The position numbers and the translations under genes are program-made. Below are positions 5,673 through 23,623 of a stretch of DNA of 48,664 nucleotides, in pieces. Each line of letters opens with the position of its first letter. The first letter of the stretch is position 1. Location of the stretch: IMG/VR virus record IMGVR_UViG_3300029686_000225. One strand, written 5' to 3'. Origin of the DNA: a virus (lineage: Duplodnaviria; Heunggongvirae; Uroviricota; Caudoviricetes). The notes beneath the pieces were generated by a model. The model had not been told where the DNA came from, made no database searches, and was given only the letters and a program-made list of their open reading frames with translations.

Positions 5673-5684
5673 ACTCGTCTCCTG

Positions 5685-5731: not shown

Positions 5732-6076
5732 TCAGGCTATTACCTGAAATTCAAGCGTGGCTCTGCTCAGACGGGAGTCAGGATCATACCCCTGCGTTTT
5801 AGAAATAACGGAGGGTGCCAGTTTCCTTACTGCATCAAGCGCCTGCTCACGAATATCATCTGCGTCATCAGGTACTGTTGCCCAGACATCGATCTGCACG
5901 ACAATTCTGGATTCAGCCTGACCATCAAGCACATCAGACGCCGTGTCAGACACCACAGAAAACACCAGCCACGGCGGAGATACCGCAGGCTTTCCCTCCG
6001 TCAGCGGGACCACATAAGGATATACCTGTCCTCCGGCCAGCTGAGACAGCAGGGAATACAGTGTGGCCTCCCTCAT
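5732..6076 (-). CDS. tail completion / tail terminator-like protein
   Basis: 114-aa ORF between neck genes and major tail gene; start overlaps upstream stop (ATGA). Confidence 0.55.
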   Translation of the reverse strand: MREATLYSLLSQLAGGQVYPYVVPLTEGKPAVSPPWLVFSVVSDTASDVLDGQAESRIVVQIDVWATVPDDADDIREQALDAVRKLAPSVISKTQGYDPDSRLSRATLEFQVIA

Positions 6077-6519
6077 TTACTTAAGACCTCATCAATAGCC
6101 TGATTCATTCGCTGTATGGCAACCTGCGCCGCCAGCTCCTCTGTCGTATCGAAAGCCGGGCGAATGAATGGATGCGCGGGCATGTTTATCGTTCCCAGCT
6201 CCACAAAGCGCCAGTAAAACGCATTTCGGGGATCGCTGGCTTTCATGCTGTTATCACTGTTTCCGGTTCGCAGGTTCCGTCCGCGAATGTGGACACCCGA
6301 GATAATTTCTCCCCGACGCTTTGAACGCTGCGTGAGAACAACCACATTTTTCTTCAGTTTCCCGGTTCGCTCCGGCGCACGTTCAACAACTGCATCCCGC
6401 ATAACTTCAGCACCGGCACGGGTGGCATCGCGCAGAACCTTATTGTTTTCTGCCCTGCTGAGCGTCTCCAGATCCCGTGCAATATCCGCCAGGCCGGAAA
6501 AATCAAGACTGAAATCCAT
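6073..6519 (-). CDS. HK97 gp10-family head-tail joining protein
   Basis: About 149 aa, basic, in the neck gene position; start overlaps upstream stop (TGATG). Confidence 0.6.
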   Translation of the reverse strand: MDFSLDFSGLADIARDLETLSRAENNKVLRDATRAGAEVMRDAVVERAPERTGKLKKNVVVLTQRSKRRGEIISGVHIRGRNLRTGNSDNSMKASDPRNAFYWRFVELGTINMPAHPFIRPAFDTTEELAAQVAIQRMNQAIDEVLSK

Positions 6520-6857
6520 CACACATTCCCCTTCAGGCTGCAGAGTATTTCAAGCCGGGTAGCGCGTGCATCCGGTATTGGTGGACCTTCTATACCCAGA
6601 ATGGCCCCTTTAAATGCACCGGTCAGCACTTTCAGACGTGAAGTCGCTGTCACATCGCGCCGGAATCTCATCCAGACTCTGACCGTAGCCTGAGCGGTTT
6701 CTGCTCCGCCTGAGATTATCTCCCTCCCGCTGATACCCTTAACTTCTGCCCATACGGTAGCTCCCTCCGTCACCGTCTCCACCGGATGCCCTGACGGAGA
6801 GCGGGCGGTGGTGACATTCAGAATAATTACGCGATCACGTAATCTGCCCGCCTGCAT
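6519..6857 (-). CDS. head closure / head-tail adaptor protein
   Basis: 112-aa ORF downstream of the gp6-like connector in HK97-like order. Confidence 0.6.
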   Translation of the reverse strand: MQAGRLRDRVIILNVTTARSPSGHPVETVTEGATVWAEVKGISGREIISGGAETAQATVRVWMRFRRDVTATSRLKVLTGAFKGAILGIEGPPIPDARATRLEILCSLKGNV

Positions 6858-6865: not shown

Positions 6866-7183
6866 CTACACAGGAATAAAACGATAAGGCTCCAGCAGAG
6901 AAGAAAAACCAAACGGGATTGGTGCCTTGCTGACATCTGAGGAATTTTCCCGGTTTTCGTACCAGTGCCCGACCAGCAACATAAGCGCCAGCAAAACATC
7001 ATCAGCTATAAGCACCCCTTCTGGATCCCCCTCCGGCACCGTCTCCTCATAAAGCTTACGGTTGATAAAATTTTCTGCCTTGCGGCAGGCAGCCCGGAAA
7101 TACAGCATCAGTAACTCATCATCAGTTGCATCATCTGTATCAATACGGCACTGCGCCCTGAGTTTTTCCACTATTGCTGCCAT
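6866..7183 (-). CDS. gp6-like head-tail connector protein
   Basis: ATG at 7183 with GGAG 7 nt upstream; acidic N-terminus with aromatic C-terminus typical of gp6-like connectors; directly follows the capsid gene. Confidence 0.6.
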   Translation of the reverse strand: MAAIVEKLRAQCRIDTDDATDDELLMLYFRAACRKAENFINRKLYEETVPEGDPEGVLIADDVLLALMLLVGHWYENRENSSDVSKAPIPFGFSSLLEPYRFIPV

Positions 7184-7227
7184 CAGAAACTCCTGCCCGC
7201 AACACTGTGCGGGCATAAAAAACTGCA

Positions 7228-8454
7228 TTACGCAGCGGCTTTCTGGCGGACCGCAGCGCCGATCTTCATCAGCTTAATCGCCTGAGAATCCACCAGCATA
7301 CCGCCGGTTCGTTTGGTGGTATAAAAGCCCACAAACGGTTTGTTTGTGTACGGATCGCGCAGGATACGGGTGCCGATACGATCAACGATGGTATAGCCGC
7401 GTTTGAAGTTACCAAACGCAATGGCTTTTGCATCGGCAGCAATATCCGGCATCTGCTCATTCTCAACGATGCCATACCCCGCCAGTGAAGAAGGCTGACC
7501 CAGCTCAATGCCCGGACGCCACAGATAATTTCCGTCGTTATCCTTCAGCAGGCGAATGGCAAACAGGCTGCTGTTATTCATCATGAACTTCGCGCCGCTA
7601 CGGTGCGCCTTGCGCAGGGTGTAAATCAGTTTAATGATCGCATCAGCGGTCACGCCAGAAGCCGAACCGGAAGCGATGTGCTGAAGTTTGCCAAACGCAC
7701 GGGTCTTGTCATCTTCATCGGTGGACTCATAAGCCAGAAAACCTTTTGGTTTTTTGCTGCCGTCGCCACTGGTAAAGGCAATTTCTTCCTGTTCGGCAAA
7801 TTCCAGCGCCAGTTCACTGTTGATCCAGTCTTCCACATTGAAAAAAGCATCATCGAGCATTTTCTGGGTAGCCTGCGGGTTGCCGTAGATTTCCCCCATA
7901 AAAGGTTCAATCAGCCCCAGTTTTGAGGTGGCGGTTTCCGGACGCGTATCCGTTTCCCCCACCCATCCGGACTTAGTGCCGCCCAGATTCACCAGTTTTT
8001 TATAATCCGAGCCACCGAGGGTGATCACAGTGGCTTCCTGGCGCATCACCACCTCATCTTTCAGCAGCGTCAGGATGGTACGATCCAGTTCTTCCGGAAT
8101 GGCATAACCACCATCTTCATCATTACCTACCTGAAGCGCCTTACGTTCAAGTTCACGCAGACCGTCTTCACGCCCCTTGCGCATAAATCCGATAAACGCT
8201 TCTTTGTGTTCACCGGCAACTTTATTTTGCGTGCCGCCTGCCGGACGCTTGATGTCTGCCAGCTCTTTTTCCAGGTCGCTTTTCAGGTTCTCCAGCTCGC
8301 TGATTTGCCCGTTCAGGCTTTCCACCTGTTCGGCCAGCTTGCTTTTTTCCTGTTCGATCGCGTCAATGCGCTTGTCGTTTTTTGCCTTAAAATCGTCAAA
8401 CTTCTGCTGCAAATCCTGCGCGACCTGTTCAACGTCTTTAATATCAACAGCCAT
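7228..8454 (-). CDS. major capsid protein, HK97 family
   Basis: 408 aa with N-terminal coiled-coil delta region and HK97-fold body; AGGAG RBS. Confidence 0.9.
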   Translation of the reverse strand: MAVDIKDVEQVAQDLQQKFDDFKAKNDKRIDAIEQEKSKLAEQVESLNGQISELENLKSDLEKELADIKRPAGGTQNKVAGEHKEAFIGFMRKGREDGLRELERKALQVGNDEDGGYAIPEELDRTILTLLKDEVVMRQEATVITLGGSDYKKLVNLGGTKSGWVGETDTRPETATSKLGLIEPFMGEIYGNPQATQKMLDDAFFNVEDWINSELALEFAEQEEIAFTSGDGSKKPKGFLAYESTDEDDKTRAFGKLQHIASGSASGVTADAIIKLIYTLRKAHRSGAKFMMNNSSLFAIRLLKDNDGNYLWRPGIELGQPSSLAGYGIVENEQMPDIAADAKAIAFGNFKRGYTIVDRIGTRILRDPYTNKPFVGFYTTKRTGGMLVDSQAIKLMKIGAAVRQKAAA

Positions 8455-8467: not shown

Positions 8468-9118
8468 TTAAAATTTAAGATTTTTCAGTGCATTCAGTGC
8501 GGCATCCACATCCTCAGCATCACGCAGGGATAAAGCGCCGTATCCCCCGGCCATGAATGCTTTGGCCTGGGTTCGCGAAAGTCCAACATCGCGCAGGACC
8601 CGCTCAATGATTTTCTGATCAGGGATCTCCCCACGCGCCAGCGCATTTTTCACATCGCTGATGCGAGCCTCATCATTGGAAGGAAACGTCACCAGACTGA
8701 CCTCCCACAGGTCGATCTCTTTCAGCAGGAATACCCCTTTTTCACGGTCGTACTCCCAGTCTTTCAGGATGTAGCCAATAGAAAGGCCGGTTAAAGAACC
8801 GGCCTTCATATGGGCATGTGCACGTTTTGCCAGGGGATCATCATCAATGAGTAATCGTCCCCTGACATAAAGCCCGACATCATCTTCTTTCATTTCGGTG
8901 TACACACCGATGGGCTCATCTATGCGGTGCTGCCAGAGCAACGCAGGCAGCGCCTTTTTTTCGCTCCATTTCTGGAGTGTTGTGGTAAAGGCTCCGGGGA
9001 CCACCACATCATCGTGGCTGTCCTTAACACCAAAAACAGAACCGTAACCTTCAAATTCCCCGGAATCACTGACGGATTTCAGGTTCAGCGGTATATCAAG
9101 ACGCTGTTTTGTCTGCAT
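8468..9118 (-). CDS. prohead protease, HK97 family
   Basis: Between portal and capsid genes; ATG at 9118 with AGGAG 7 nt upstream. Confidence 0.85.
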   Translation of the reverse strand: MQTKQRLDIPLNLKSVSDSGEFEGYGSVFGVKDSHDDVVVPGAFTTTLQKWSEKKALPALLWQHRIDEPIGVYTEMKEDDVGLYVRGRLLIDDDPLAKRAHAHMKAGSLTGLSIGYILKDWEYDREKGVFLLKEIDLWEVSLVTFPSNDEARISDVKNALARGEIPDQKIIERVLRDVGLSRTQAKAFMAGGYGALSLRDAEDVDAALNALKNLKF

Positions 9119-10337
9119 CTCCACTCTCCTTTTTCTTACCGTTGTCATCGCCAGCAGAGGGACTGGTGGTCATGTTCATCGGTGTCAGATACACATCACC
9201 GCCCGGTCGGGGATTCATATCTTCCAGATCACGGCAGTCATTAGGGGAATAAATCCCCCAGTTGATCCCCGTGGCATACGCTTCAAAGCGGGATTTCATG
9301 TCGCCACGCAACAATGCTCCGGCATTAAATTTGGCGTAAAACTTCCCCTGCTTGCTCTCCCTGACCAGCCCTGTATTGATCCGCTGCTCAATACGGGTCA
9401 GATACGGCACAAGGGAATAGTTAATGAAACCAAGCCCCAGCTCTTCAATATTGTTGAAGGTGGCGCGGTCAGTGTTCTGCACCATATGCAGTGGCACGCG
9501 GAAAAGACGACAGATTTCTTCCAACTGAAACTTGCGGGTTTCCAGGAACTGGCTGTCCTCGGCATTCAGTGCCACCGGCTTCCAGTCCAGCCCCATTTCC
9601 AGAATCATCGGACGATGAGAATTTCCCAGCCCGACATGCCGTTCCTCAAAGTCCTTTTTGATACGCGCATAAGCCTGATCAGAAAGTTGTTGATCCGTAC
9701 GCAACACACCGGATGTCACAGCGCCGTTACCAAACAGCCTGGCGCCGTGCTCCTCGGTTGCCGCTGCCAGTGAAATGGCCTCACGCGCATACGCAATGGG
9801 ATTCAGCCCGACCAGTCCGTTCAGCGTCAGGGTGCGCACATGCCAGATTTCATCCTGGGTCAACACATCCACGGAACCATCCGGAAACGTCACCTGATAA
9901 ACCGGCTGCCACTGGCTGTTCAGCTTCGGTTCCACACAGCCCGGATCTATCGGGAGAAGCTCCACCACTTCCCCCAGTGCCTTTACCTTGTAGGCGTAAA
10001 AATTACCCTGCAGACACAGGCAGACAATGACCAGTTCCCAGAATTCCTGCGGCGTCATGTAGCCATTGGGTTTTGCCGAAATCAGCTTATGCAGTCGTTC
10101 ATCCACCGCCCGTGTTTTCAGGGTGCCGGTGATTTTGTAGAGGCTGCAGGGCAGCATACCAACAGACTCTGCCAGCACCCTGACGCAGGAATACACTGCC
10201 GTCAGCCGCATGGCCCGCTTACTGCTGATCCGCTTTCCGGTATAGGTGTCATATGACAACCCAAGTTCTTCCGCAAGCATCCCGGGCGTTGTGGCGGGGG
10301 GATTATTTTTACGTTGAAAAAGCCCCTGGAAAAACAT
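9096..10337 (-). CDS. portal protein, HK97 family
   Basis: 413-aa ORF with portal-family pattern; GGAGGTGA RBS. Confidence 0.9.
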   Translation of the reverse strand: MFFQGLFQRKNNPPATTPGMLAEELGLSYDTYTGKRISSKRAMRLTAVYSCVRVLAESVGMLPCSLYKITGTLKTRAVDERLHKLISAKPNGYMTPQEFWELVIVCLCLQGNFYAYKVKALGEVVELLPIDPGCVEPKLNSQWQPVYQVTFPDGSVDVLTQDEIWHVRTLTLNGLVGLNPIAYAREAISLAAATEEHGARLFGNGAVTSGVLRTDQQLSDQAYARIKKDFEERHVGLGNSHRPMILEMGLDWKPVALNAEDSQFLETRKFQLEEICRLFRVPLHMVQNTDRATFNNIEELGLGFINYSLVPYLTRIEQRINTGLVRESKQGKFYAKFNAGALLRGDMKSRFEAYATGINWGIYSPNDCRDLEDMNPRPGGDVYLTPMNMTTSPSAGDDNGKKKESGDADKTAS

Positions 10338-10530: not shown

Positions 10531-11256
10531 TTAAAGCGAGCGGATACCAACACTGATCAGGTGTTCAGACAGATCCGGCTCCGGTTCACCGCCATTGACC
10601 AGCATCCGGCTCATTGCTGTAAACATCGCAACAGGGCCGTCGATTTTGGCTTCAGGCGTGGATTTATTCGGGAAGATATTGTCGTTTTTGTCCGGTTTTA
10701 CCGTAACGTTAGACATCATCCAGTTCATGACCGGGTGATTACTGTGATGGAAACGTCCGGCATAGACCAGTGATTCCGTTTCCTTCATGGCCTCTGACAG
10801 ATTGCGGACCGTCTGCGGAACTTCCACCAGCGGTATACCTTCTTCAGCCAGCGCCAGACTGAACTGCATTGCACTCCACGGGTCAAATCCCAGTTCCCTG
10901 AGGTTTTCACCACCAATCCATTCCAGTAAGTCACTTTTTATCTGAGCATGATCGATAACATCACCATCCGTCAGGATGAGCTTATCCATCTCCGCCCATT
11001 TCCGGTAAAGTTCTGCCTGCTGCCGCGAGCACCGCTCCAGCCGTCCTTCCGGGAGCCAGAATTTAAAATCAGCATGAACATGTCCGTTATCGGTTCGCCA
11101 GAGTTTTGCCGCCGCACAGATATCAATCTTATGAGCAAGGTCGACGCCGACCCACATGGGATACGTTTTCAGCTCATGTCGTGGGGCAATATATTCGCAT
11201 TTCTCCCACTTAATCATGTCCATCCAGGCAGACTCTGCTGTTACCCACACATTCAT
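10531..11256 (-). CDS. terL: terminase large subunit, C-terminal nuclease part of a gene interrupted by the inserted element
   Basis: Colinear with the C-terminal 240 aa of the intact satellite TerL ([13 protein letters not shown] vs NIWCQGATPWMGN); no N-terminal ATPase domain in this ORF; upstream in frame reads LTKH then a stop. Confidence 0.85.
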
Positions 11257-11260
11257 GTGT

Positions 11261-11274
11261 TTGGTAAGAATATT
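11261..11274. repeat. left junction repeat of inserted element (att core TTGGTAAGAATATT)
   Basis: 12 of 14 identical to 26211-26224; 7-bp perfect core TTGGTAA; lies in terL codons L-T-K. Confidence 0.7.
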
Positions 11275-11520
11275 TCAAGTTTTTTAAAATCACCTGTATA
11301 TCAATCGTTTAACATGAAAAAACAGTCTTTATAAATCATCAAGCAATACACAGCGCAATACACGTATCTGTATTGTTTTAATGCTGATACACACCGTTTT
11401 TTGATATAGTGATTCGACCTACCATCGCGAAGCATTTTTTATTTCTTGTGTGTAACAATCTGACGAGGTGAGCACTCAAAGAGATAAGAGGCAGTAGAAA
11501 TTTCGATCCCCCCCTGAATG

Positions 11521-11701
11521 CAATTTTTCGTATATATATACAAAACAGCGCGGGTTATGCGGGTTAGCGGGTTATCTTCGCGTGCTAAGTATTTTTACTC
11601 TTTAATATCAATGCGTTAAAAAACAACGTATTTAAATATCAGCCAGAATGTAACCCGCAAGACATTCAAAATAACCCGCAAACACCCCTCAAATAACCCG
11701 C
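11521..11701. repeat. iteron cluster (GCGGGTTA x3 direct, TAACCCGC x3 inverted) with adjacent (TA)n tract
   Basis: Direct copies at 11550, 11559, 11567; inverted at 11651, 11672, 11694; alternating TATATATATA at 11531-11545. Confidence 0.7.
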
Positions 11702-11782
11702 AAAAACATCCCTGAAAGTGGGTACCGGTAATACTGAAAATTTATTCCATTAAATGAGCATTGTCCTCTCTCATCCATTCCG

Positions 11783-13444
11783 TTACACACCATCAAACGC
11801 CGCAAGCCGCTCTTTGTGGCTGTCGCTCATATCGAATGCAAATTCCTCATGCTCTGCCTGGAATGTGCCAAACGCCATCAGCGCCGCAACGCTCGGGTCT
11901 ATCTTGTTGGATGATTTTTTCTTGTTCGGCTTGATATTGGCGTTCGCGTCACTCTGCATCACAACATTACTCATTGACCAGGCCAGCACCGGATCACCAC
12001 GATGCACAATCACCTTCCGGTTAACAAAAACTTCGAACGATTTCGCCGCCGGACTGAAACGAAGGTATGTTTGCGGGAACGGCTCCACCTCAAATCCTGC
12101 GCCCTGTAGCTGCGTCCTCAGGTGCGTGGCGTTCCATGTATCGAAACCCACCAGCCTGATATTGAAATTCTCTGCATCCGCCATGATGTCATCACGGATA
12201 CGGTCATAATCAATGCAGTCACCCGGTGTTGTGCGTATCCAGCCCGCCTTTACCCACTGGCGATAGATGGCGCGGTTTTTATTGGCGGGGTTCTGTAGCT
12301 GAAATTCCGGCAGATAGTGACGGGAAACCAGCATAATCTTTTTACCGACCGGAAAGGCATAGCACACGCTGGAAATATCGCTGGTTGATGATAAGTCCAG
12401 CCCCGCGTAGCACTCCTGCCCGTATAAATCCGCCTCCGCGAACGTTCCGGCGCACTCCGCCCATGCACCATTACCCATCCACGGCGTAGCCCCCTGACAC
12501 CAGATATTGAATCGCTTGGTGAGCATTTCCACCCACTGCGACGGAATACCCCGCGCTTTCTGGATGGTTGAGGCCAGTTTTTCACGATCGACGGAAACAT
12601 CGATATTGGGATTCGCCTTTATCCACATCTCCGGATCGTCAACCTCGCTTTCATCATCCAGCTCGTAAATCAGCACGAACATGGATTCGTTCACCTCTTC
12701 ACCATCCAGTATCTGGCAGCAATAGTCGTAGTGTTGTTTACAGGCTGAAACAACGTTGCTCCCCGATGTGGTGATGGCAAATAATAACCCCTCCGGGCGT
12801 GCCCCCATTCCCAGTTCAAGCGCGGAATAAACCCCGTTGTCAGGGTGCAGGTGATATTCATCCACAATGGCAAGACTCGGGTTTGTACCTTCAATGGTTG
12901 CCGCTTTTGCTGCCAGCGGCTTTAACAGGCTGTTGGTTTTTGGGTGTATCACCTTGTGTGCCTGAATATTTACCCGCTTTCGTAACGGTCGGGATAAAAG
13001 GCACATCTGACGCGCATCATCAAACACGATCCGCGCCTGATCACGACTCACGGCGGCGGTGTAAATATCCTGCTGCCCGTTTTCCATAACCAGAAACCAG
13101 TTAGCCAGGATAGCGGCGACCGTGGATTTGGCATTTTTTCGCGGTACTTCAATGAATGCGCTGGTGTATTTGCGCCGCCCGGTGGCCTTAACCTTAAAGC
13201 CCAGGATGCACGCAAAGGCGAACTGCTGCCACGGCTCCAGTTTAATTGGGCTACCGCGCATTGCGCCTTTTACGTGCGGACACACCCTGGAAAAGGCAAT
13301 AAACCGCTCCACGACCTCCGGATCGAACGTGTAAAGGGGGTTTTCAAGGTCATAAAAATACCGTTTAACGGCCTGTTTCAGTCGTTTACAGGCCGTAATT
13401 TTGCCGTTTTTTACGCCTTCTGCGTACTCATGCCAGGCGGTCAA
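11783..13444 (-). CDS. terL: terminase large subunit (satellite copy, intact)
   Basis: 553 aa; P-loop-like region RKNAKST, Walker B IVDEYH, C-terminal nuclease domain; TTG start with GAGGA RBS, overlapping terS end. Confidence 0.9.
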   Translation of the reverse strand: MTAWHEYAEGVKNGKITACKRLKQAVKRYFYDLENPLYTFDPEVVERFIAFSRVCPHVKGAMRGSPIKLEPWQQFAFACILGFKVKATGRRKYTSAFIEVPRKNAKSTVAAILANWFLVMENGQQDIYTAAVSRDQARIVFDDARQMCLLSRPLRKRVNIQAHKVIHPKTNSLLKPLAAKAATIEGTNPSLAIVDEYHLHPDNGVYSALELGMGARPEGLLFAITTSGSNVVSACKQHYDYCCQILDGEEVNESMFVLIYELDDESEVDDPEMWIKANPNIDVSVDREKLASTIQKARGIPSQWVEMLTKRFNIWCQGATPWMGNGAWAECAGTFAEADLYGQECYAGLDLSSTSDISSVCYAFPVGKKIMLVSRHYLPEFQLQNPANKNRAIYRQWVKAGWIRTTPGDCIDYDRIRDDIMADAENFNIRLVGFDTWNATHLRTQLQGAGFEVEPFPQTYLRFSPAAKSFEVFVNRKVIVHRGDPVLAWSMSNVVMQSDANANIKPNKKKSSNKIDPSVAALMAFGTFQAEHEEFAFDMSDSHKERLAAFDGV

Positions 13445-13784
13445 GCTCGTCCTCTTCCTCTGTTTCCGGTGGATTTCTGCGGCGGCTTACCGGGTCAAAA
13501 CCCAGCAAAGAAGCCATTTTGATCATTATTCTTTCTGCGTCAGCCTTTGCGCTCAGAGCGGGGTTTCTGCTTTCGCTGCCCTGACTGTTAACAATGCTGA
13601 AGCCGCGCGTCGCAAGGTCTTCGACGGCTTTGCGGTATATGGAGTAGTTAACGCAATACAGTTCCAGATTGCTCCAGTCGGCGGGGGTAAGGTCTTCCCG
13701 CCCGGAAAGCTGGCGCGATTTTTCCTTCCACTGCCTGACCGCGATTTCATCCAGGTAAGCGGGGGCTTTTGGTGGTCTTGCCAT
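13428..13784 (-). CDS. terS: terminase small subunit (P27 family)
   Basis: Starts MARPPKAPAYLDE; homologous to the prophage TerS (MSGPPKTPPRL...); immediately upstream of terL. Confidence 0.8.
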   Translation of the reverse strand: MARPPKAPAYLDEIAVRQWKEKSRQLSGREDLTPADWSNLELYCVNYSIYRKAVEDLATRGFSIVNSQGSESRNPALSAKADAERIMIKMASLLGFDPVSRRRNPPETEEEDELDRLA

Positions 13785-14072
13785 GTTCTTTTTTCGCCCA
13801 ATTATTTTCAAAAAAATTTCCGTGCACAAAAATTTGAGGAGGCGGTCGGTGTCCGGCAGGGACGGTTTTGTCCTGAAAACCTCCCCCACCCCCTCTGACG
13901 GCCTCACCAGCGATTGCGAAAACATTCCATGACCTCGCGGTCACGGTCGGTTAATCGCTTCGCTGTGGTGCGTTCTGTGCGCCCTGTCCTGTTGGCTTTG
14001 TGCCCTGTCTCCTGTGTCTTCCATAAGTCACGCTGCCTTATCAGTCCACGTATCAGCCTGTTTTGCTCCTGT

Positions 14073-14513
14073 TCAGTCATCATCGCCATACATCCAGTCG
14101 TTACGGTGTGCCGCCCGTTCTTCCTGCTCGCGATACATACCCGCCTTACGGTTCGCTTTCGTGGCTGGATCTTCCCGTGTTGTCTTACGGTTATGGCACG
14201 TCTGGCACAATGCCTGGTGGTTCCACTCAGGCCAGAAGAGAACATCACCGCCGCCATTGATGGGAATGATGTGATCCACCACAAGAGCTGGCGTATAAAT
14301 CCCCTTAGCCAGACAACGCACGCATAACGGATTTTTGCTCAGGTACAGGGCGCGGTATTTGTCCCACTGTCGGGAATACCCGCGCGCGCGGCGGTGTCCC
14401 CGTCTGGCATCCTCTGCACGCCATGCAGCCCGCCTGTGATCTTCGCACTTGCCGGACTTCACGCGCTTATTACAGCCCGGCTCAGTGCATCGCCTTAATG
14501 GTTGCCACGGCAT
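14073..14513 (-). CDS. HNH endonuclease (packaging-associated)
   Basis: Cys-rich Zn motifs and HNH core (DHIIPINGGG ... CQTCHNRK); located upstream of terS. Confidence 0.85.
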   Translation of the reverse strand: MPWQPLRRCTEPGCNKRVKSGKCEDHRRAAWRAEDARRGHRRARGYSRQWDKYRALYLSKNPLCVRCLAKGIYTPALVVDHIIPINGGGDVLFWPEWNHQALCQTCHNRKTTREDPATKANRKAGMYREQEERAAHRNDWMYGDDD

Positions 14514-14812
14514 CAGTACACCCCTACATCACGATAAACCGACCAGAGCGCAGAAATAGCCATAGGCAGTTCAGACTGCTCCACAGGTGAAACCGCTTCC
14601 CTGTTCTCGTACAGGAAAGCGATGTACATCAGGCAACCAACACGTATTGCCGGGGTAAATTCCAGCCCGTCTTCAAAACGTTTCCCGATATGCTTCTGGC
14701 AGGCTTCCAGCGCCGCATCGGTATACATTTTCAGAAGTTCGCCTTCTCCGGAAAAGTCATCAAGGCGAAGATGTGCCCTGACTTCATCAGGTGTAATTTT
14801 TTCTTCACTCAT
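14513..14812 (-). CDS. gp6-like head-tail connector protein
   Basis: Starts MSEEKITPDEVRAHLRLDD, the gp6-like signature; GGTGA RBS. Confidence 0.65.
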   Translation of the reverse strand: MSEEKITPDEVRAHLRLDDFSGEGELLKMYTDAALEACQKHIGKRFEDGLEFTPAIRVGCLMYIAFLYENREAVSPVEQSELPMAISALWSVYRDVGVY

Positions 14813-16019
14813 CTTTTTCACCTTTAATTTCCACCGTCTGCTTCCATGCCTGGCTGAATTCGTCGCCACCTTCACGCGGCGGCATCCCCTCACGTTCGCG
14901 GGCTTCGTTCGGATTCATGATCCCGTTCTTAATCCCTTTCTCATACGTGGCGTAACGTTCGGTAGGGGTGGCGCGTAATAAATCGGCTGAATCAAACTCA
15001 ACCAGATAACGGGTACCAGGTACGGGAGAAGCCACCAGCAAAGCGGCCTTAATTTGCTGTTCGAAGTTCGCCAGCCATGGGCGCATTGTCATGGTCAGAA
15101 ACGCGCGGCTTGCCTCGCTGAAATTGCTGTAGGTGCTGTTGCTGTATTCCTGCAGAAAAATAGGCGATACGTTGAACATCCGGGCGATGTCTTCAATGGA
15201 GAAGCGACGGGAGGCCAGCCATTCCGCATCCTGGTTACTCATCCCCAGTTGCTTGTAATCCATGCCCCCTTCAAGGATTGGCGTTTTTCCGGCATTTTTC
15301 GCCCCCTTGTAGCGTTCCAGGGCGTCTAATGCCTGTTTACCTTTCACGCCGTCCAGCCATTCGCCTGACGTGATAATCCCTGCCGCCATCATGCCATCTT
15401 TCATAATGCTGGCTCCGTGACGCTGTTGAGCAAGGCCAAGCCCCAGCGCCTCACGGCAAATCGTGACGGGGGAACGTCCCAGAAAGCCATCATCCGAGGC
15501 ATAGCGGAGATGCAGGACTTCTTCCTGTAAATACGTGCGTACCGTTCCTGTATAGGGTTCGGTGATGGTATAGCGGTATTTGTGTGCGCCTGTGCGTTCC
15601 GGTACAACACACCCCGGCGCATAAGGATGAAGTGATTTTGGCTGACCGTCCCGCCCCCATTCAATAACCGCATAGGCGTTACCGTTCAGCAGGCAGTGAC
15701 GCATCATTGTGCGTTTAAACTGGTAAGGTGTCTGGCACGAATTAGGCTGCTCATTCAGCAGAATATCTACCGGATGACTGTCCAGCCATTCCCGCGCCTC
15801 CCTGCCCTTGTCATTACGTACCAGATACAGATAACACGGCATCGTGGCCACCGCCTCAGCGATGACGGAAACCGCGTTCATCACAGCAGGCAATGATTCA
15901 GCCGTCCCGGCAGAAACATATTCTCCGGATCCGGTATTCGGTACGCCGGACAGCGCCAGAAAATCATCAATGGACAGGTTACGCAGATCGCTTTTTTTAC
16001 GACTAAAAGGCCACCACAT
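14805..16019 (-). CDS. portal protein, HK97 family (satellite)
   Basis: About 404 aa with portal-family pattern; start directly after protease stop. Confidence 0.85.
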   Translation of the reverse strand: MWWPFSRKKSDLRNLSIDDFLALSGVPNTGSGEYVSAGTAESLPAVMNAVSVIAEAVATMPCYLYLVRNDKGREAREWLDSHPVDILLNEQPNSCQTPYQFKRTMMRHCLLNGNAYAVIEWGRDGQPKSLHPYAPGCVVPERTGAHKYRYTITEPYTGTVRTYLQEEVLHLRYASDDGFLGRSPVTICREALGLGLAQQRHGASIMKDGMMAAGIITSGEWLDGVKGKQALDALERYKGAKNAGKTPILEGGMDYKQLGMSNQDAEWLASRRFSIEDIARMFNVSPIFLQEYSNSTYSNFSEASRAFLTMTMRPWLANFEQQIKAALLVASPVPGTRYLVEFDSADLLRATPTERYATYEKGIKNGIMNPNEAREREGMPPREGGDEFSQAWKQTVEIKGEKDE

Positions 16020-16020
16020 A

Positions 16021-16581
16021 TCACAACCCCGCCAGTTCAGCCCAGCGATGACGATTATTTCCTGTCGGGCGTAATTCAGGGTGCTGTGCAAACAACGAAC
16101 GGTGGGCAATCTCCACGCCGGATTCGGGATAAGCAGGCATCGACGTTATCGTGATTTCACGGAGTTCTGCGGCGGTAACAGTGCGCAGATACGGTTTTTG
16201 CGCGATATTCCATTCTTCGCATAATGCGCGAAAGCCAAAGCTCATTCCTGTAATGTCGCCACGCTCCACCAGCGTAAGCACATCTTTTCCAAGCTGGGTA
16301 TCAGGCGGTGTCAGTTCAAAACGTAGCCCGGTGTTGTCCTCAGTCAGTACCAGTGTTCCGGATTTGGTGCGCCCCAGCAGTCGGGTATAGTCATGCTCAT
16401 ACAGGCAGCGCACATCATTACCCGCCGCCAGATAGTCAGCAAAAGCCCCCGGCGTGAACTGTTCGCGGAATTCGTCCCAGATAATTTCTGAAAGGCTGTT
16501 CCAGCGAACGGCATAACCCACCAGTTTTTTATCGCTGGCGGTCAGTTCAGATGTACGGATTTCAAAATCGGTATTTTTCAT
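16021..16581 (-). CDS. prohead protease, HK97 family (satellite)
   Basis: About 186 aa; GGAG RBS; motifs LGRTKSGTL and MSFGF typical of the prohead protease family. Confidence 0.8.
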   Translation of the reverse strand: MKNTDFEIRTSELTASDKKLVGYAVRWNSLSEIIWDEFREQFTPGAFADYLAAGNDVRCLYEHDYTRLLGRTKSGTLVLTEDNTGLRFELTPPDTQLGKDVLTLVERGDITGMSFGFRALCEEWNIAQKPYLRTVTAAELREITITSMPAYPESGVEIAHRSLFAQHPELRPTGNNRHRWAELAGL

Positions 16582-16630
16582 CGGTGTACTCCATAAAGCT
16601 GAAAAAGGAGGCCGAAGCCCCCTTTGCTCA

Positions 16631-17776
16631 TTACTTGCCAGCCTGAATTTCCAGAATCTTGATGGCGTTCGAATCCACCACACCACCGCCCAGATATTTC
16701 TGGGTATAGATGTTAATGAATCCGGGTTCGCTGAAATCCGGACGGGTTCGCGTACCGGTTTCATGGTCAACGATGAAATAACCGCGCTTAAAGTCACCTA
16801 CTGCAATCACACCGTCCGGCATAAATTCCAGATATTCAACCGGAAGCCCCAGCAGAGAATCAGGATCACCAGCCTGTAAACGATCGCGCCAGATGTAATC
16901 ACCAGTGGCATTTTTCAGTTTTTGTGCGGAGGCGGCTGTATTTGAGTTCATCACCCATACAGCTTTTTTGCGGTACTTATTGCGTAGCGTAAATTTCAGG
17001 TCAATCAGCATGTCGGCGCTGAGACTGCCAGTCACTTTTTTCGTCTGGAGCGTACCGAAAGGACGGGTTTTGTCGTTATCCGCAGTGCGCGGAAAAGCCA
17101 GGAAACCTTTAGCTTTTTTCTCGCCATCACCAGAAACCAGATCCGTTTCTTCGGTATCAACGAAAGTGTCGCCAATTTCAGAAGATAACCAGCTCATAAT
17201 ATCGACTTCGGAAAAATCGATAATTTCCTGAGTGGTTTTTGGGTAAGCGTAGATCGGATACAGGCGGATACTGACTTCATTCAGTTTTGGGGTTGCCGTC
17301 TGGTTACGTGTAGTGCCTTCTTCACCGTGTTCAACGACCGCGCCCCCGGCAGAAACCAGTTGCTTAAATTCATTGCTGTGAATGGTTTTAACGGTACAGA
17401 TTTTACGCATCACCGATTCATCAGAAAGCTGACGCATAATTTCTCTGTTCAGTTCCGGGATAACCGTATAACCACCATCAGCCGGGACACTGCCAGACAG
17501 GTTGCGGGTTTCCCCGGTCAGAATGTAAGAGCGCAGTTCGTCTTTGGTTATTTTCTCTTCGACGGAAACACCAGGCTGGTTACGTTCTTCATCAGCCACA
17601 GATTCGAGGCGGGAAATTTCTGTGTCGAGGGAATCGGCTTTTGCACGCAGTTCATCAAACTGTTTGCCCTCGTCATCGTTCAGGCTGCGGTTTTCACTGT
17701 CGGCTTTTTCCAGCAGGGATCGCATCTGGTTTTTCAGGGCGGTTTTTTGCTGGCGGAGTTCGATTAATTTCTTCAT
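16631..17776 (-). CDS. major capsid protein, HK97 family (satellite)
   Basis: 381 aa with N-terminal coiled coil and HK97-like core. Confidence 0.9.
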   Translation of the reverse strand: MKKLIELRQQKTALKNQMRSLLEKADSENRSLNDDEGKQFDELRAKADSLDTEISRLESVADEERNQPGVSVEEKITKDELRSYILTGETRNLSGSVPADGGYTVIPELNREIMRQLSDESVMRKICTVKTIHSNEFKQLVSAGGAVVEHGEEGTTRNQTATPKLNEVSIRLYPIYAYPKTTQEIIDFSEVDIMSWLSSEIGDTFVDTEETDLVSGDGEKKAKGFLAFPRTADNDKTRPFGTLQTKKVTGSLSADMLIDLKFTLRNKYRKKAVWVMNSNTAASAQKLKNATGDYIWRDRLQAGDPDSLLGLPVEYLEFMPDGVIAVGDFKRGYFIVDHETGTRTRPDFSEPGFINIYTQKYLGGGVVDSNAIKILEIQAGK

Positions 17777-18049: not shown

Positions 18050-18298
18050 TTATTGTTTCACTGGATCCCGCATTCTGCGTCTTATTTTCCACAGATATTC
18101 GATCATCGCTTCCACCTGCTCACGGTTGGTTGCGAAAATTTCCCCGGTCAGTGAGCTACGCAGAAAATCATGATGATCCACAACAAACAACGCATCGGAA
18201 GAAAGCAGACGGCGATATTTTTTTGCTGTCGTGGTTTCCAGATCATCAAAACCATGAAATTTTTTATGTTGCTGGACTTCTTCAAATGTCACTGGCAT
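18050..18298 (-). CDS. hypothetical protein
   Basis: 82-aa ORF with AAGGGGG RBS; no recognisable motif. Confidence 0.5.
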   Translation of the reverse strand: MPVTFEEVQQHKKFHGFDDLETTTAKKYRRLLSSDALFVVDHHDFLRSSLTGEIFATNREQVEAMIEYLWKIRRRMRDPVKQ

Positions 18299-18831
18299 GT
18301 ATCCCCCTTTACTGCCCGGCGCTGGCGCTTGTGCTTCTCATTCAGCGCCATCAGCCGCGTTTCTGCCTCCTGCTGTTCCTGTGGTGTCACCTCGCCGCAC
18401 GGCTGGCCTTTCAGGTCGTAACGTGCACCACCAGCCATTAAGGCGCGGTAATAGCGCGGAGACTGCGCATAGGATGCCAGCGTCGCACGTAATGCCCCCG
18501 GCCCGAATGTCAGCCCCCTGGCGGCGATATCCTGCATCAGGTCGTCGCATATCCCCACCTTAAGCGGCTTCGGTGCTTCCCGGCTGAATAAGTCAGGCCA
18601 CATCTCTGTGAGGCGGTTAACGCGCCTGCGGTTTTTGCGCTGGCGTTTGGTCATATGCCGCCACGGTGTCGCCTCTGTGGGCTTCTGTTTGCGGCTCTGC
18701 TGTGCGTTCTGATTGCCGGGCATCACTTTATGCGCCGATGTGGCTTTATCCTGCTGCTGTGCCGTCTGCGTTGTTTTCTGCGGCGTGCCGTAAATGCCTT
18801 TCGGTTTTCGGTTAATGGTCAGCGTTGTCAT
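18289..18831 (-). CDS. ProQ/FinO-family RNA-binding protein
   Basis: C-terminal region PLKVGICDDLMQD...LRATLASYAQSPRYYRALMAGGARYDLKGQPCGEV resembles the ProQ/FinO domain; basic N-terminus. Confidence 0.65.
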   Translation of the reverse strand: MTTLTINRKPKGIYGTPQKTTQTAQQQDKATSAHKVMPGNQNAQQSRKQKPTEATPWRHMTKRQRKNRRRVNRLTEMWPDLFSREAPKPLKVGICDDLMQDIAARGLTFGPGALRATLASYAQSPRYYRALMAGGARYDLKGQPCGEVTPQEQQEAETRLMALNEKHKRQRRAVKGDTCQ

Positions 18832-18867
18832 GCTTTCCCCTGTAATAACTCTGTTCGCTGTTGTGAA

Positions 18868-19293
18868 TTAAAACGGTATGTTATCCCCGTACGGGTCATC
18901 GTGCTGGCTTGTCTGTTGTTTTGCCCTGTTCAGTGCGTCAGTGGCCTGGCCCTGCTGGCCTTTTTTGCCGCCCGGTCGCGCCGTTCGCGCACTGATTACG
19001 CTGTCTGCGATAACCTGCCAGCCCTGTCGCGTTTCCCCGTTCTGGCCTGTCCACTGGCTTACCTGCATGTTACCCGCCACGCTCACCAGTTCGCCTTTGC
19101 GGTGTTTTGCCAGTGCGTCGGCCTGTCTGCCAAACGCCAGGACAGATAACCACATCGTCGCCGTTCCGTCATCTGCCTGGCTGCACGGCAGGGGAACCGC
19201 CATACTCGCCATAGCCATTTGTGTCCCCTTGCTGGTGGTCTTTAACTGCGGGTCAGCCACCAGCCGCCCGTAAGCCGCTATCTGTGCTGTCAT
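18868..19293 (-). CDS. ssb: single-stranded DNA-binding protein
   Basis: OB-fold pattern and acidic C-terminal tail ...DDPYGDNIPF. Confidence 0.8.
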   Translation of the reverse strand: MTAQIAAYGRLVADPQLKTTSKGTQMAMASMAVPLPCSQADDGTATMWLSVLAFGRQADALAKHRKGELVSVAGNMQVSQWTGQNGETRQGWQVIADSVISARTARPGGKKGQQGQATDALNRAKQQTSQHDDPYGDNIPF

Positions 19294-19357
19294 GCTGTCT
19301 GTTCTCCGGTTTTAACGTTGATTGTTACGCTTGTTTACACCCTTACGGTGAAATTCT

Positions 19358-19480
19358 GCGGGTTATAATCGCACTTTTGCGGGTTATAACTGCCGTTTTG
19401 CGGGTTACGTGCGGGTTATTGATTTCCTTTTTATTCATACAGTTAATGCACTTATGCACAGGATAACCCGCATAACCCGC
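19358..19480. repeat. candidate replication origin iterons (GCGGGTTA x4 direct, TAACCCGC x2 inverted)
   Basis: Direct copies at 19358, 19379, 19400, 19411 (21, 21, 11 bp spacing); inverted at 19464, 19473; immediately 3' of the primase-helicase gene. Confidence 0.7.
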
Positions 19481-19503
19481 AACTTTTCACCTCACACAGG
19501 GGG

Positions 19504-21627
19504 TTAATCTTCTGCCTCAGGCTGGAACATCAGCACGTAAAAAACATGCTGCTTCCCCCCAATTTTGCCGAGCGCCTTTTTCTTGTAACGGCGATCGTTA
19601 CCCGCTTCCAGCATTCCGGCAGCACTCAACGCGCGGGCAAAGTGAGACGGATTAAATCCCTGTGCTATCTCACCCTCAAATACATGCGGGAACGTGTAAA
19701 AACGGAACTCGTCATCTTCGTTTCTGATACACCCCTTTCTGTATCCGGCAAGCTCTTTAATCGGTAAATCACGCTCGTCGGTGTTGGGCCACGGAAGGTA
19801 TCTGCTGAATCCGAACGACGCTAAAAAAGCCTCTGCCTGTTCAACCATCTGTTTAAACTCCCTGTTACCCGTGCCGAACTCCTTCACCCAGGCATTAAAA
19901 TTATGCTGAATGGCATCGCGGCACGCCTGAACATCCCAACCAGTAATATGGACGGAAAGCACCAGCGCCGACTCCAGCATGGCGAATCGTTCCCCCACAC
20001 GGTGAACCTGTTCGCCGTAACTCTCCGGTATCAGGTTGCGCCACCGTTCACGGCATGCCCTTACCGTATCCTTTGCCTCCTGCTGGTGGTCTGCCAGCCA
20101 TTTAACCCATTCACGCCCCGCCGCCCCGTGATTTTCTGTCCAGGCATCCTTTAACGCGTCTGCGTGTGCCTTTCCGGTGCTGTATTCGTGAAACTGCGTG
20201 GCTTTTTCCATTGGCACGTTAAGCAGGCGGACAAGCTGCCCCGCCTTGACTTTTATCCCCTCCGTTTTGAGGAATGTCTCAACGTCCATTTCTCCGGTGC
20301 TGATTGCCACCGTGCGCCAGTGTTTGATCTCCCTGTTGCCGCCGTCCTTCGCCCCCTGTAATTTCCCCGAACCGTTAAACAGCGTATAAGCCGACGTGGA
20401 CACTTCCCGCGCGTTTCCGGCCTGGCCTATTTCATCCAGGGGTAAAAGCCCGTCATTGTGTGCCTCTGCTTCGTTGGCGATACCTAACGCTGTGCCGTAC
20501 CAGGTCAGCCGCTGCGCGTCCGGCTCTCCCCATAAACTTGATGCGATGTTCTGCGTTGTGGTCTTACCTGCCGATGACTGTTCGAAAAGATGTACCCCGA
20601 AGCCGTCAGCACCCACCAGCCCGATTAATGGTGCGGATAGCGATACCGCCACACCCAGCATCATGGACGGATTACCACCAGCCAGTCGCGCCACACTGTC
20701 GCGCCAGCCCTCCGCCGTTCCTGCCACGGAATAACCATTAACGGCAGCCGTTTTTCCGGTAAACAGGACTGGCTTTTCGCAATCACCAATGACCGAACCG
20801 TCCGGCATGATGTACGCGCCAAAATGCCAGCCCGTTGTTGTGCTTAACTGCCATTCCTCATGGTTTCCGCTTAACTGCATCCAGTCAGCCAGGATAGCCC
20901 TGTATTTACCGTTGGTTGTCACGTTCAGTCCGTGGTCTTTCAGCAGCCGCCAGCCGTCACGGTCGCCAATGCCACCGCACGGAACCGCCATCGTGATGAC
21001 TTCATGGTTTGCTGGCTTTTTCCAGCGCATCACGCGGTAATGCTCTTTGCCGATTGTCCCCGTTCCCAGTAGCTCAAGCGGGGAGCATAACCACGTTTCA
21101 GGCCGGATAATTTCGCCTGACTGCTTATCCACTTTTGGCGTTACCCAGAAAACACCATCGGCGCGGCTTTCAACGCGGGGCTTTAATTCATCATCACCCG
21201 GGCTTTCTGTGATTTTTTTCTTTAAGGGCAACACCAGACTTTCCCCGCGCTCGTATTCGTCTTTGAGGCGAGGCAACTGGTCGGATAAATCCGCCGGGCT
21301 GGTGTCAGTTATCCCCGCGTATTCGTATACGGTCTTCACGCCAGCCACAGCCAGCAACGTGACGATCTGTGTGAGGCTACGTTCAGTGATGTGCCCTGCG
21401 CGGTAAATACGCACACACTGACGGCTATCATCAATAATTTGATAACCGGTAATATCTTTCAGGTGTTCATCTGACAGAACGACAGGCGGCACATTGTCGG
21501 CGGCAATATGCTTACCTGCCCATTCCTGCCACTCTTTCGCATGGCTCCACGCATCACTACCCGCAAAGATGATAACCTCCGTCATTTTGTCGGCTGGCTG
21601 GTGCTTTAAGTTTGGTGCGCGCTTCAT
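19504..21627 (-). CDS. replication initiator, putative primase/helicase
   Basis: 707 aa with Walker A-like SSAGKTT; sits next to the iteron cluster as PICI/P4 replication genes do. Confidence 0.7.
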   Translation of the reverse strand: MKRAPNLKHQPADKMTEVIIFAGSDAWSHAKEWQEWAGKHIAADNVPPVVLSDEHLKDITGYQIIDDSRQCVRIYRAGHITERSLTQIVTLLAVAGVKTVYEYAGITDTSPADLSDQLPRLKDEYERGESLVLPLKKKITESPGDDELKPRVESRADGVFWVTPKVDKQSGEIIRPETWLCSPLELLGTGTIGKEHYRVMRWKKPANHEVITMAVPCGGIGDRDGWRLLKDHGLNVTTNGKYRAILADWMQLSGNHEEWQLSTTTGWHFGAYIMPDGSVIGDCEKPVLFTGKTAAVNGYSVAGTAEGWRDSVARLAGGNPSMMLGVAVSLSAPLIGLVGADGFGVHLFEQSSAGKTTTQNIASSLWGEPDAQRLTWYGTALGIANEAEAHNDGLLPLDEIGQAGNAREVSTSAYTLFNGSGKLQGAKDGGNREIKHWRTVAISTGEMDVETFLKTEGIKVKAGQLVRLLNVPMEKATQFHEYSTGKAHADALKDAWTENHGAAGREWVKWLADHQQEAKDTVRACRERWRNLIPESYGEQVHRVGERFAMLESALVLSVHITGWDVQACRDAIQHNFNAWVKEFGTGNREFKQMVEQAEAFLASFGFSRYLPWPNTDERDLPIKELAGYRKGCIRNEDDEFRFYTFPHVFEGEIAQGFNPSHFARALSAAGMLEAGNDRRYKKKALGKIGGKQHVFYVLMFQPEAED

Positions 21628-21938
21628 TTTGCCTTTCCCCGTTCACGAATAATTTCACGTACTGCCTTAATGCGTTCCATTCCTGTAACGCGCATGATTC
21701 TGTCGATGTCGCTTAATTCTGCTGGTGGTGCTTTGCTTACCAGGGTGAACTCCCTGTCAAAGCGCATATGTGACGACACGCAGGGATGCGCATAACCTTC
21801 GCGGATATAGGTCACACGAAAATCATCGACGGTTTTAATCGTTATCGTGCTGCCGTATTTATCCCGGAAAATATCACCGGGGCGGATTTCAGGCCGAGCG
21901 TGACCGCTGGCAGTAAAGCCAGAATTTTTCTTTTTCAT
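21624..21938 (-). CDS. hypothetical protein
   Basis: 104-aa ORF; stop overlaps primase start (ATGA). Confidence 0.5.
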   Translation of the reverse strand: MKKKNSGFTASGHARPEIRPGDIFRDKYGSTITIKTVDDFRVTYIREGYAHPCVSSHMRFDREFTLVSKAPPAELSDIDRIMRVTGMERIKAVREIIRERGKAK

Positions 21939-22163: not shown

Positions 22164-22398
22164 AATCGCCCCCGCCATTTTCACAATCAGCAATCAGGAT
22201 GGCTTTAGCCTCATTCAGCGCCATATCAGCGGTAAGCTGTGCGTAAGCCAGCGAATGCGGGATTATCGCCCCTGTATATTCCGTCTCTCTGGTAATGTGT
22301 TTTTCTGCGGTTGCTGCCGTGCATGAAATATCAATCAGCGCGTGCATTAGCGTTTTGATGGCTTCGGCGGCTGCGTCCGGACGGGTGTTATTGCACAT
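22153..22398 (-). CDS. hypothetical protein
   Basis: 81-aa ORF with AGGGGG RBS. Confidence 0.45.
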   Translation of the reverse strand: MCNNTRPDAAAEAIKTLMHALIDISCTAATAEKHITRETEYTGAIIPHSLAYAQLTADMALNEAKAILIADCENGGGDYAK

Positions 22399-22594
22399 GG
22401 CGTACCCCCTGACGAATACGGGCGGCGAATACCATCACGCAACCAGCCGGGGATTGCTGGCGTGCTTCCTGTTCGCTGGTGGCCTCAATGGTAATCACGC
22501 GCGGTTGTGCCGTGCTCAGGGCGATAAAACGCCAGATGTATTTATTCAGGTTGTGCGAGTCCCGCCCTTGCGGGTGTGTGGTATGATTTCTCAT
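22388..22594 (-). CDS. hypothetical small protein (first gene of leftward operon)
   Basis: 68 aa; ATG at 22594 with GAGGT RBS; only the 3' 207 nt of the 363-aa track ORF is taken as real. Confidence 0.4.
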   Translation of the reverse strand: MRNHTTHPQGRDSHNLNKYIWRFIALSTAQPRVITIEATSEQEARQQSPAGCVMVFAARIRQGVRHVQ

Positions 22595-22691
22595 AGCTAC
22601 CTCGATACTTCTGCTATCGTTGGTGGTTAGAAGCCCTGCGAGTGGTAACGACACTTGCGGGGCTTTGCATTTATGCGCCTTGATAATTTTA

Positions 22692-22727
22692 AGGTGTGGC
22701 CCACTATATGTTTTAGGTGTGGCCCAC
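22692..22727. promoter_or_regulatory. two 13-bp direct repeats AGGTGTGGCCCAC in a divergent promoter region (candidate operator)
   Basis: Repeats at 22692-22704 and 22715-22727, 23 bp apart, followed by TATACT and the RHH gene RBS. Confidence 0.45.
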
Positions 22728-22793
22728 GTCAAGAGTTTTATTTGTGCTTTTTCTGTGTATACTGTCCCCCACCAATCCACCAGAGGAATAGAA

Positions 22794-22973
22794 ATGGCAA
22801 CGGGTACAACAAACGCAAAATCACAAGCTCTAAAGGCTCGTGTACCACACGAAATAGTAAACGCCATGGAATCAGTGAAAGAATCAGGCGAAAGCACATC
22901 ACAATTCATCATTACGTCAATGCAAGGCGAGATCAAACGCCGCCAGCGTCGCAAGGCCAAAGAGCAGGAGTAA
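22794..22973 (+). CDS. putative ribbon-helix-helix-type regulator
   Basis: 59-aa ORF with AGGA RBS; only plus-strand gene in the element. Confidence 0.45.
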   Translation: MATGTTNAKSQALKARVPHEIVNAMESVKESGESTSQFIITSMQGEIKRRQRRKAKEQE

Positions 22974-23310
22974 CCATCACCAGCGCCGTGGTGTGAGGAA
23001 TCACGGCGGCAACCATAGGAGTAAAAGATGCCAAAACTTAAAAATTGTGCACTCTGTGCGATTGTTCTAATTGTCGCCGCCTTTATCTTAAAATCATGCT
23101 TCGAGAAAAAGAATCTTTGCGGAAGCAATGAAGGCGATATATTACGGCGTGCTTGCGATATAGAGTTGAAAAAAAGTTGAGCATAACCTAACCGCGACAA
23201 TGCCGTAGTTCCTGTAATTACAGAACAGCTCAGGATTTGCCCACCAGCCGCAAATGTGGCATTGTTGGTTATGCTCATGCGTTGGGGATAACGTGTAGCT
23301 TGTGTCAAGG

Positions 23311-23339
23311 GGCCACCGTAGCGGGTGGCCTTTGTTTTG
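23311..23339 (+). terminator. intrinsic terminator (plus strand)
   Basis: GGCCACC-GTAGCG-GGTGGCC then TTTGTTTTG. Confidence 0.5.
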
Positions 23340-23376
23340 CCTGTTATCCTGCAACTATGGTCATTTCGACCACGGT

Positions 23377-23465
23377 TGATATAATCCCCCCGCACAGATT
23401 CATTTTTTGCGCAGTAGGTTAATTGTTCGCAAGGGCGCTCCGGTAACGGGGCGCTTTTTGTTTTT
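23377..23465 (+). ncRNA. candidate small RNA (extended -10 promoter to intrinsic terminator)
   Basis: TGATATAAT at 23377-23385; hairpin GCGCTCCGGTAACGGGGCGC plus T-run at 23435-23465; no ORF. Confidence 0.3.
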
Positions 23466-23623
23466 ACCCACCAGCACAATAAAAATCTTCATTTTCCATT
23501 TTTGTAAAATTTCATGCTTTCCGGACGACTGGTAATATGTCATTTTTTAGCAGAAGATTTTGCCTTGCTGGTGGGTAGCTTCCCGGTCAACACGATGTAC
23601 CGTATAATCAACACCGCGTGTGG

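Follow-up and report, generated by a model that had tools for sequence, protein, structure and literature searches.

The window considered here is a 48,664-nucleotide stretch of viral DNA (IMG/VR record IMGVR_UViG_3300029686_000225), and a set of head and packaging genes lies at positions 11783-17776 within it. We assign this set, with a probability of about 0.88, to an EcCIEDL933-type capsid-forming phage-inducible chromosomal island (cf-PICI), as its operon for morphogenesis and packaging of DNA. The island, here called the satellite, is a discrete element inserted site-specifically in the large terminase subunit gene (terL, encoding TerL) of a lambdoid prophage whose head is of the HK97 type. 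The satellite family, its gene order and its embedding in a prophage have all been published, and the finding is therefore already known.

All genes of the module lie on the minus strand and, as assigned with Pfam and PHROGs, are transcribed in the order capsid, S78 protease, portal, gp6-like adaptor, HNH endonuclease, a small open reading frame (ORF), small terminase subunit (TerS) and TerL. Protein identity to the EcCIEDL933 counterparts ranges from 58% for the adaptor to 93% for TerL. The HK97-fold major capsid protein of 381 amino acids (16631-17776; PF05065, E 2e-60) shares 76% identity with that of EcCIEDL933, the prohead serine protease (186 residues, 16021-16581; PF04586, E 3e-45) 62% and the portal (404 residues, 14805-16019; PF04860, E 7e-93) 81%. 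The adaptor, Ad1 (99 residues, 14513-14812), is matched by phrog_40, 'head-tail adaptor Ad1', with an E value of 1e-27; its Pfam PF05135 score of 20.1 bits falls under the cut-off of 21.2. The HNH endonuclease (146 residues, 14073-14513; PF01844) is 84% identical. Between HNH and TerS an ORF of 61 residues (13904-14089; phrog_3173, E 3e-29) is the counterpart of the EcCIEDL933 hypothetical gene 1792, with 82% identity and in the same position. TerS, of the P27 family (118 residues, 13428-13784; PF05119, phrog_83), shares 88% identity, and TerL (553 residues, 11783-13444) carries PF03354 and PF20441 and has the lowest ratio of non-synonymous to synonymous substitution rates (dN/dS), 0.10.

Are these genes likely to work? 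None of the eight head and packaging ORFs is truncated or contains an internal stop. Against EcCIEDL933, dN/dS is 0.10-0.27 for seven of the genes, synonymous divergence being saturated in the adaptor. Another embedded copy of the satellite, locus L001 of strain OkiPb01701, differs at 74 synonymous and 19 non-synonymous sites when the capsid gene is excluded, and the pooled ratio of non-synonymous to synonymous polymorphism (pN/pS) is 0.075. The satellite head genes are complete, and by these ratios they are subject to purifying selection.

The boundaries of the element are exact. The satellite spans 14,950 bp between two 7-bp TTACCAA crossover cores, attR at 11261-11267, which is the right end in the satellite's own minus-strand orientation, and attL at 26211-26217, likewise on the minus strand and identified by junction comparison and by the published ttaccaa block. 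When the 14,950 bp between the cores are removed in silico an uninterrupted prophage TerL of 585 residues results, and the restored terL junction carries AATTTTTTTACCAAACACATG. The N-terminal fragment (26218-27238, ORF 26045-27238, minus strand) holds the PF03354 ATPase domain and positions 2-68 of the nuclease profile; the C-terminal fragment (10531-11260, ORF 10531-11256, minus strand) holds positions 64-283 and joins it in frame. The prophage gene is thus broken at nuclease-profile positions 64-68, all genes concerned are on the minus strand and the insert is co-oriented with the prophage late operon. A 275-bp probe spanning the restored junction was searched against 5426 complete E. coli genomes and phage records, and the junction is uninterrupted in 901 of those genomes and in 11 phage records. 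Of 931 E. coli genomes that carry this allele of terL, about 30 have no uninterrupted junction. Phage phi467 displays the uninterrupted order, HNH-TerS-TerL (1758 nt)-portal-protease-capsid-gp6-joining protein-tail. Exact cores, clean restoration of TerL and uninterrupted junctions elsewhere together identify the insert as a discrete element placed site-specifically in terL.

At the position homologous to the prophage attB (12500-12530, codons ~302-319) the satellite's own terL has CTCACCAAG in place of TTTACCAAA, and the flanks differ too. Given these differences, integration of the satellite into its own terL looks unlikely.

Comparison with EDL933 gives the element its family. The head module is 81% identical in nucleotide sequence to E. 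coli O157:H7 EDL933 over 95% of the module length, and the EDL933 locus, between roxA and phoQ, is the published EcCIEDL933. Its annotation runs int, HTH, …, DUF4222, DUF927, SSB, …, capsid, protease, portal, head closure, head-tail connector, HNH, hypothetical, TerS, TerL. The window satellite has the same architecture, the same order of head and packaging genes and a DUF927 primase with TGCGGGTTA iterons; both elements are ~15 kb and both are without tail and lysis genes. The differences are few. The window satellite has no head-closure gene between portal and adaptor, it has ProQ/FinO where EcCIEDL933 has a PerC-family gene, it has a second iteron array at its right end, and it carries another integrase/attP module, the integration site being prophage terL rather than chromosomal roxA-phoQ.

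The left half is of the PICI type. A tyrosine integrase with an arm-DNA-binding domain (24831-26075, with the ATG start probably at 26039; PF00589 and PF13356) is followed by two AlpA-type regulators or excisionases (24617-24850 and 24275-24583) and a Bro-N anti-repressor-like protein (23624-24220), the last three from PHROGs. A DUF4222 protein (21624-21938) and the DUF927 primase-helicase (19504-21627) were assigned with Pfam and from the annotation of the near-identical locus L001. Next come SSB (18868-19293), the ProQ/FinO protein (18289-18831) and, in the same block, an 82-residue ORF (within 18050-19293), all by Pfam and PHROGs; these genes are on the minus strand. Directly downstream of the primase gene is an ori-like iteron array (19347-19491), and the same iteron is found 3′ of the DUF927 gene in EcCIEDL933. 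To this half the satellite adds a capsid, prohead protease, portal, HNH, TerS and TerL of its own, all intact. All ORFs between the att cores were annotated with Pfam and PHROGs and no tail or lysis (holin) gene was found among them, and the 14,950 bp fall within the cf-PICI size of about 10-18 kb. Near-identical modules occur at at least three att sites and, at 95% identity or more, in over 130 genomes.

Cf-PICIs were defined on EcCIEDL933, an element of 15.4 kb with capsid, protease, portal, head-tail connectors, HNH, TerS and TerL and no tails (Alqurainy et al., bioRxiv 10.1101/2022.09.08.507074). In that work mutants of the packaging module abolished island transfer and left the phage unaffected, with the exception of the small ORF 1792, the mutant of which was severely impaired in transfer. 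Phage tail mutants abolished the transfer of island and phage alike, and the capsids of EcCIEDL933 are island-encoded (bioRxiv 10.1101/2022.09.08.507074). The cf-PICI capsid has T=4 symmetry, a size of 47.5 nm and holds 15.5 kb (He et al. 2025, bioRxiv 10.1101/2025.02.11.637232). Adaptor and connector set tail specificity, and cf-PICI capsids accept the tails of various phages (bioRxiv 10.1101/2025.02.11.637232). Small island-encoded capsids, packaging of self only and a need for phage tails are known only for EcCIEDL933 and a few relatives. Classical Gram-negative PICIs of the EcCICFT073 type share the int-alpA-Bro-primase-ori left half and the dependence on a helper; unlike the satellite, which has its own, they are without portal, adaptor and TerL and redirect the capsids and terminase of the helper.

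The placement within a prophage also has a precedent. Tommasini, Mageeney and Williams (2023, PMC10111431) described helper-embedded PICIs (HE-PICIs) that occupy late genes of prophages, with 14 such sites, and here the satellite lies inside such a late gene, terL, co-oriented with it. The attL and attR of the window match the published alignments of class A_Terminase_1_246 (Supplementary Files 3 and 4) almost base for base, including the identity block 'ttaccaa'. The doubled HE-PICI-specific motif tgTGTATTGCantgTGTATTGCa is present once in each attP arm, as TGTATTGCgcTGTGTATTGC at 11343-11362 (minus strand), with its near edge 79 bp from the attR core centre, and as TGTATTGCacTGTGTATTGC at 26060-26079 (minus strand), with its near edge at 135 bp from the centre of the attL core, against 81 and 132 +/- 2 bp in PMC10111431. 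Members of A_Terminase_1_246 likewise have TGTATTGC as a doubled motif in each attP arm, are co-oriented with the prophage late operon and are E. coli elements of 15-16 kb. We found no structural difference between that class and the window satellite. The identity of att sites and arm motifs would place the satellite integrase in the 11capE clade. The term cf-PICI does not occur in PMC10111431, and A_Terminase_1_246 is not stated there to be capsid-forming with its own TerL while interrupting that of the helper; the gene profiles of the sister class A_Terminase_1_132 do show the capsid-forming set and an own TerL (PMC10111431).

The prophage has a head gene set of its own, in the usual phage order on the minus strand: HNH (27868-28221), TerS (27238-27720), TerL, portal (9096-10337), protease (8468-9148), capsid (7228-8454), gp6 (6866-7228), a head-closure protein (6519-6857, PF05521), the sole copy in the window, and a gp10-like protein (6073-6522), with lambda-like tail genes at 1-6076, among them that of the tape measure (1033-4239). 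HK97-like temperate phages such as phi467 and this prophage encode homologues of the satellite's HK97-fold capsid, S78 protease, portal, gp6-like adaptor, HNH, P27-family TerS and TerL. They differ from it in the order, HNH-TerS-TerL-portal-protease-capsid-connectors-tail, and in the presence of tail and lysis genes. By pairwise blastp the window prophage proteins are only 20-39% identical to those of the satellite: HNH 39%, capsid 36%, portal 32%, restored TerL 31%, TerS 27% and protease 20% (E 0.007). The satellite adaptor and prophage gp6 gave no blastp match. Neither simple inversion nor circular permutation accounts for the difference in order, and a single orientation is kept throughout; capsid-protease-portal of the satellite is the reverse of the phage portal-protease-capsid, with HNH-TerS-TerL retained as it is around the phage cos site.

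A sequence-only reading of the region had given the satellite order and its coordinates correctly, leaving the 61-residue ORF unlisted, and had described the two sets as homologous yet diverged, as the blastp values bear out. It also gave the prophage the usual order. The gene order stands, with the qualification that the satellite splits the prophage TerL, so the usual order exists only after removal of the satellite. It called the satellite order non-canonical, which is apt relative to phages; the gene-map comparison with EcCIEDL933 makes clear that capsid-protease-portal ahead of HNH-TerS-TerL is the standard published cf-PICI order and no local rearrangement.

What might this gene set do? 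By analogy with EcCIEDL933, induction of the satellite would be triggered by a helper and depend on AlpA, excision would restore the prophage terL and replication would follow from the primase-linked ori. The satellite capsid protein, protease and portal would then build small T=4 heads, into which alone its HNH, TerS and TerL would cut and package unit-length cos DNA, and the adaptor would dock phage-made tails. The head-closure protein would probably come from the helper, and lysis and release would be supplied by the helper phage. The claim that the element can build and fill its own capsids gains support by this analogy, given a module collinear with EcCIEDL933, eight intact genes and the signs of purifying selection. 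The absence of tail genes was also correctly noted. The further proposal, that the prophage is required only for head closure and tails, is reasonable as to head closure, the gene being absent and the sole homologue in the window being that of the prophage. The word 'only' is too narrow, because the element has no lysis genes either and, again by analogy, would need an induction signal from the helper.

The missing head-closure gene is a small departure from the prototype. EcCIEDL933 has a 113-residue head-closure gene between portal and adaptor, whereas in the window satellite the portal stop overlaps the adaptor start and the gene is absent. With the EcCIEDL933 protein as query against the window, tblastn found no homologue inside the satellite; the sole match is prophage 6519-6857, with 52% identity and an E value of 7e-33. 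Of the two head-tail proteins of cf-PICIs, adaptor and connector or head closure, only the adaptor is present, which leaves 10 of the 11 SatelliteFinder core components. Elements with 10 of 11 components are 'Type B', are counted as cfPICI and form a common class (PMC10085698). As the element is without the prototype's head-closure protein, the protein probably comes from the helper. A link between loss of the gene and helper embedding was considered and rejected, since modules without head closure, at 96-97% nucleotide identity, are also found in cf-PICIs at chromosomal roxA-phoQ (L003) and rcnR-thiM (L004). The head-closure proteins of prophage and EcCIEDL933, at 52% identity (E 8e-38), are far closer than the other phage-satellite head pairs (20-39%), a hint that phages and cf-PICIs have recently exchanged neck proteins.

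Three points weigh against the cf-PICI assignment. A cos site was not located, and there is no strong repeat in the gap between HNH and TerS. Lacking a gene that is essential in EcCIEDL933, the element could be a crippled variant, a worry against which the chromosomal modules without head closure and the purifying selection both weigh. Lastly, no resident prophage of EDL933 acted as helper, so that residence in a prophage is no proof of induction or of compatible tails.

This last point leads to the alternative that survives best, that the prophage is a mere landing site, a conserved terL sequence serving as attB, and that other phages induce the satellite and supply tails, head closure and lysis. 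None of the 17 resident EDL933 prophages efficiently mobilized EcCIEDL933 (bioRxiv 10.1101/2022.09.08.507074). The acceptance of tails from various phages, with specificity set by adaptor and connector, fits this proposal, as do the lack of blastp similarity between the satellite adaptor and prophage gp6 and the same head module at the chromosomal sites of L003 and L004. On the other hand, the satellite is integrated in the same orientation as the late operon around it, this integrase clade has repeatedly targeted late genes of prophages, and the prophage holds the only head-closure gene of the window, itself similar to that of EcCIEDL933. We consider the proposal possible and on balance doubtful.

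A second alternative is that the satellite is a fossil, structurally intact and immobile, for example through loss of head closure, that now just inactivates the prophage terL. The absent gene is consistent with this, as is the PGAP annotation of a related genome, in which the two parts of terL on either side are labelled pseudogenes. Yet the eight ORFs are full length and free of stops, pN/pS against another embedded copy is low at 0.075, near-identical modules are spread over several att sites and many genomes, and att cores and arm motifs are intact. These observations make a fossil distinctly improbable. That the block was left by a second HK97-like prophage, now degraded, or arose when the prophage head genes were duplicated internally, as the phage-like run of satellite HNH-TerS-TerL into the prophage TerL C-terminal fragment and portal might suggest, is refuted by the exact 7-bp att cores, the clean restoration of terL and the collinearity with EcCIEDL933, and the PICI-type left half (int, alpA, Bro, primase), the 15 kb size and the identity of only 20-39% to the prophage set also argue against it. 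An EcCIEDL933-type cf-PICI is the assignment that we retain.

The capsid gene has features of its own. The best match of the satellite capsid among solved structures is 9gyi, a 385-residue 'Major head protein' (E 2e-187). Its length equals that of the EcCIEDL933 capsid, and 9gyi is probably the EcCIEDL933 T=4 structure. Next in closeness come 6tb9 and 6tba, capsids of the gene transfer agent of Rhodobacter capsulatus (E ~1e-45), and no HK97 capsid chain is among the structure matches at a cut-off of 1e-5. The gene is mosaic: positions 16631-17776 of the window and 11338-12507 of L001 encode proteins of only 71% amino acid identity, L001 being otherwise ~99% identical, and the chromosomal L003 carries the 381-residue allele of the window. 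This distribution suggests that capsid alleles are swapped among cf-PICIs.

The iterons of the satellite are arranged in two arrays. The 9-mer TGCGGGTTA occurs in 10 exact copies in the window against 0.38 expected, and a second ori-like array (11546-11714) is inverted relative to that at 19347-19491. Both arrays have direct copies at 21-bp spacing, an AT-rich spacer and tightly spaced inverted copies, and they bracket the block from SSB to TerL. The embedded relative L001 has both arrays; in EcCIEDL933 every copy is downstream of the primase gene. Of the two, the inverted one at the right end might take part in replication in situ.

Between Bro-N and the small early ORFs, a region of ~1.2 kb of the satellite (22400-23620) is without a convincing gene on the minus strand. 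On the plus strand it has a YlcI/YnfO-like ORF (within 22620-22973) and two strong hairpins that resemble terminators, at 23308-23333 and 23431-23458. P4-type immunity RNAs have been reported in some HE-PICIs; the Rfam families C4 and isrK gave no match at the gathering threshold in the whole window and none at E values up to 1 in 22300-23700, and no Rfam family matched 22400-23620. In a promoter and terminator scan of the satellite, promoter-like sites were rarer than in shuffled sequence.

Elsewhere in the prophage, positions 31842-32735 hold genes for tRNA-Lys and tRNA-Met together with one for an AraC-family regulator (32022-32735), within the late-regulatory region and downstream of the Q antiterminator gene (33298-34119). 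A cargo segment of low GC content (0.38-0.43) at 35948-39149 comprises a C-5 cytosine DNA methylase (35948-37045) overlapping a 703-residue HATPase_c_3 protein (37038-39149) with a weak restriction-enzyme-like match at its C-terminus. This is possibly a restriction or defence module.

For annotation the satellite explains why one prophage should contain a second set of head genes and two terL 'pseudogenes'. It also carries a warning. On the minus strand the satellite HNH-TerS-TerL run straight into the prophage TerL C-terminal fragment and portal, mimicking the phage order, and only the att sites reveal where satellite ends and prophage begins. Standing directly before the prophage portal, these genes are easily mistaken for the prophage's own. 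We rejected such an assignment of TerS and TerL at 11783-13925, as a separate TerS and a split TerL belong to the prophage and the region falls between the att cores, inside the satellite.

For the biology of the family, we raise tentatively the idea that this lineage, having abandoned its head-closure gene, relies on a phage for the completion of heads in addition to tails, while having its own TerL and splitting that of its host prophage. With terL split the phage could not package until the satellite leaves, and the late operon could still make tails and head closure. If true, this would be a tighter, gate-keeping piracy compared with the commensal model in which the satellite 'only steals tails'. 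A need of the variant without the gene for helper head closure would refine, not overturn, the current model.

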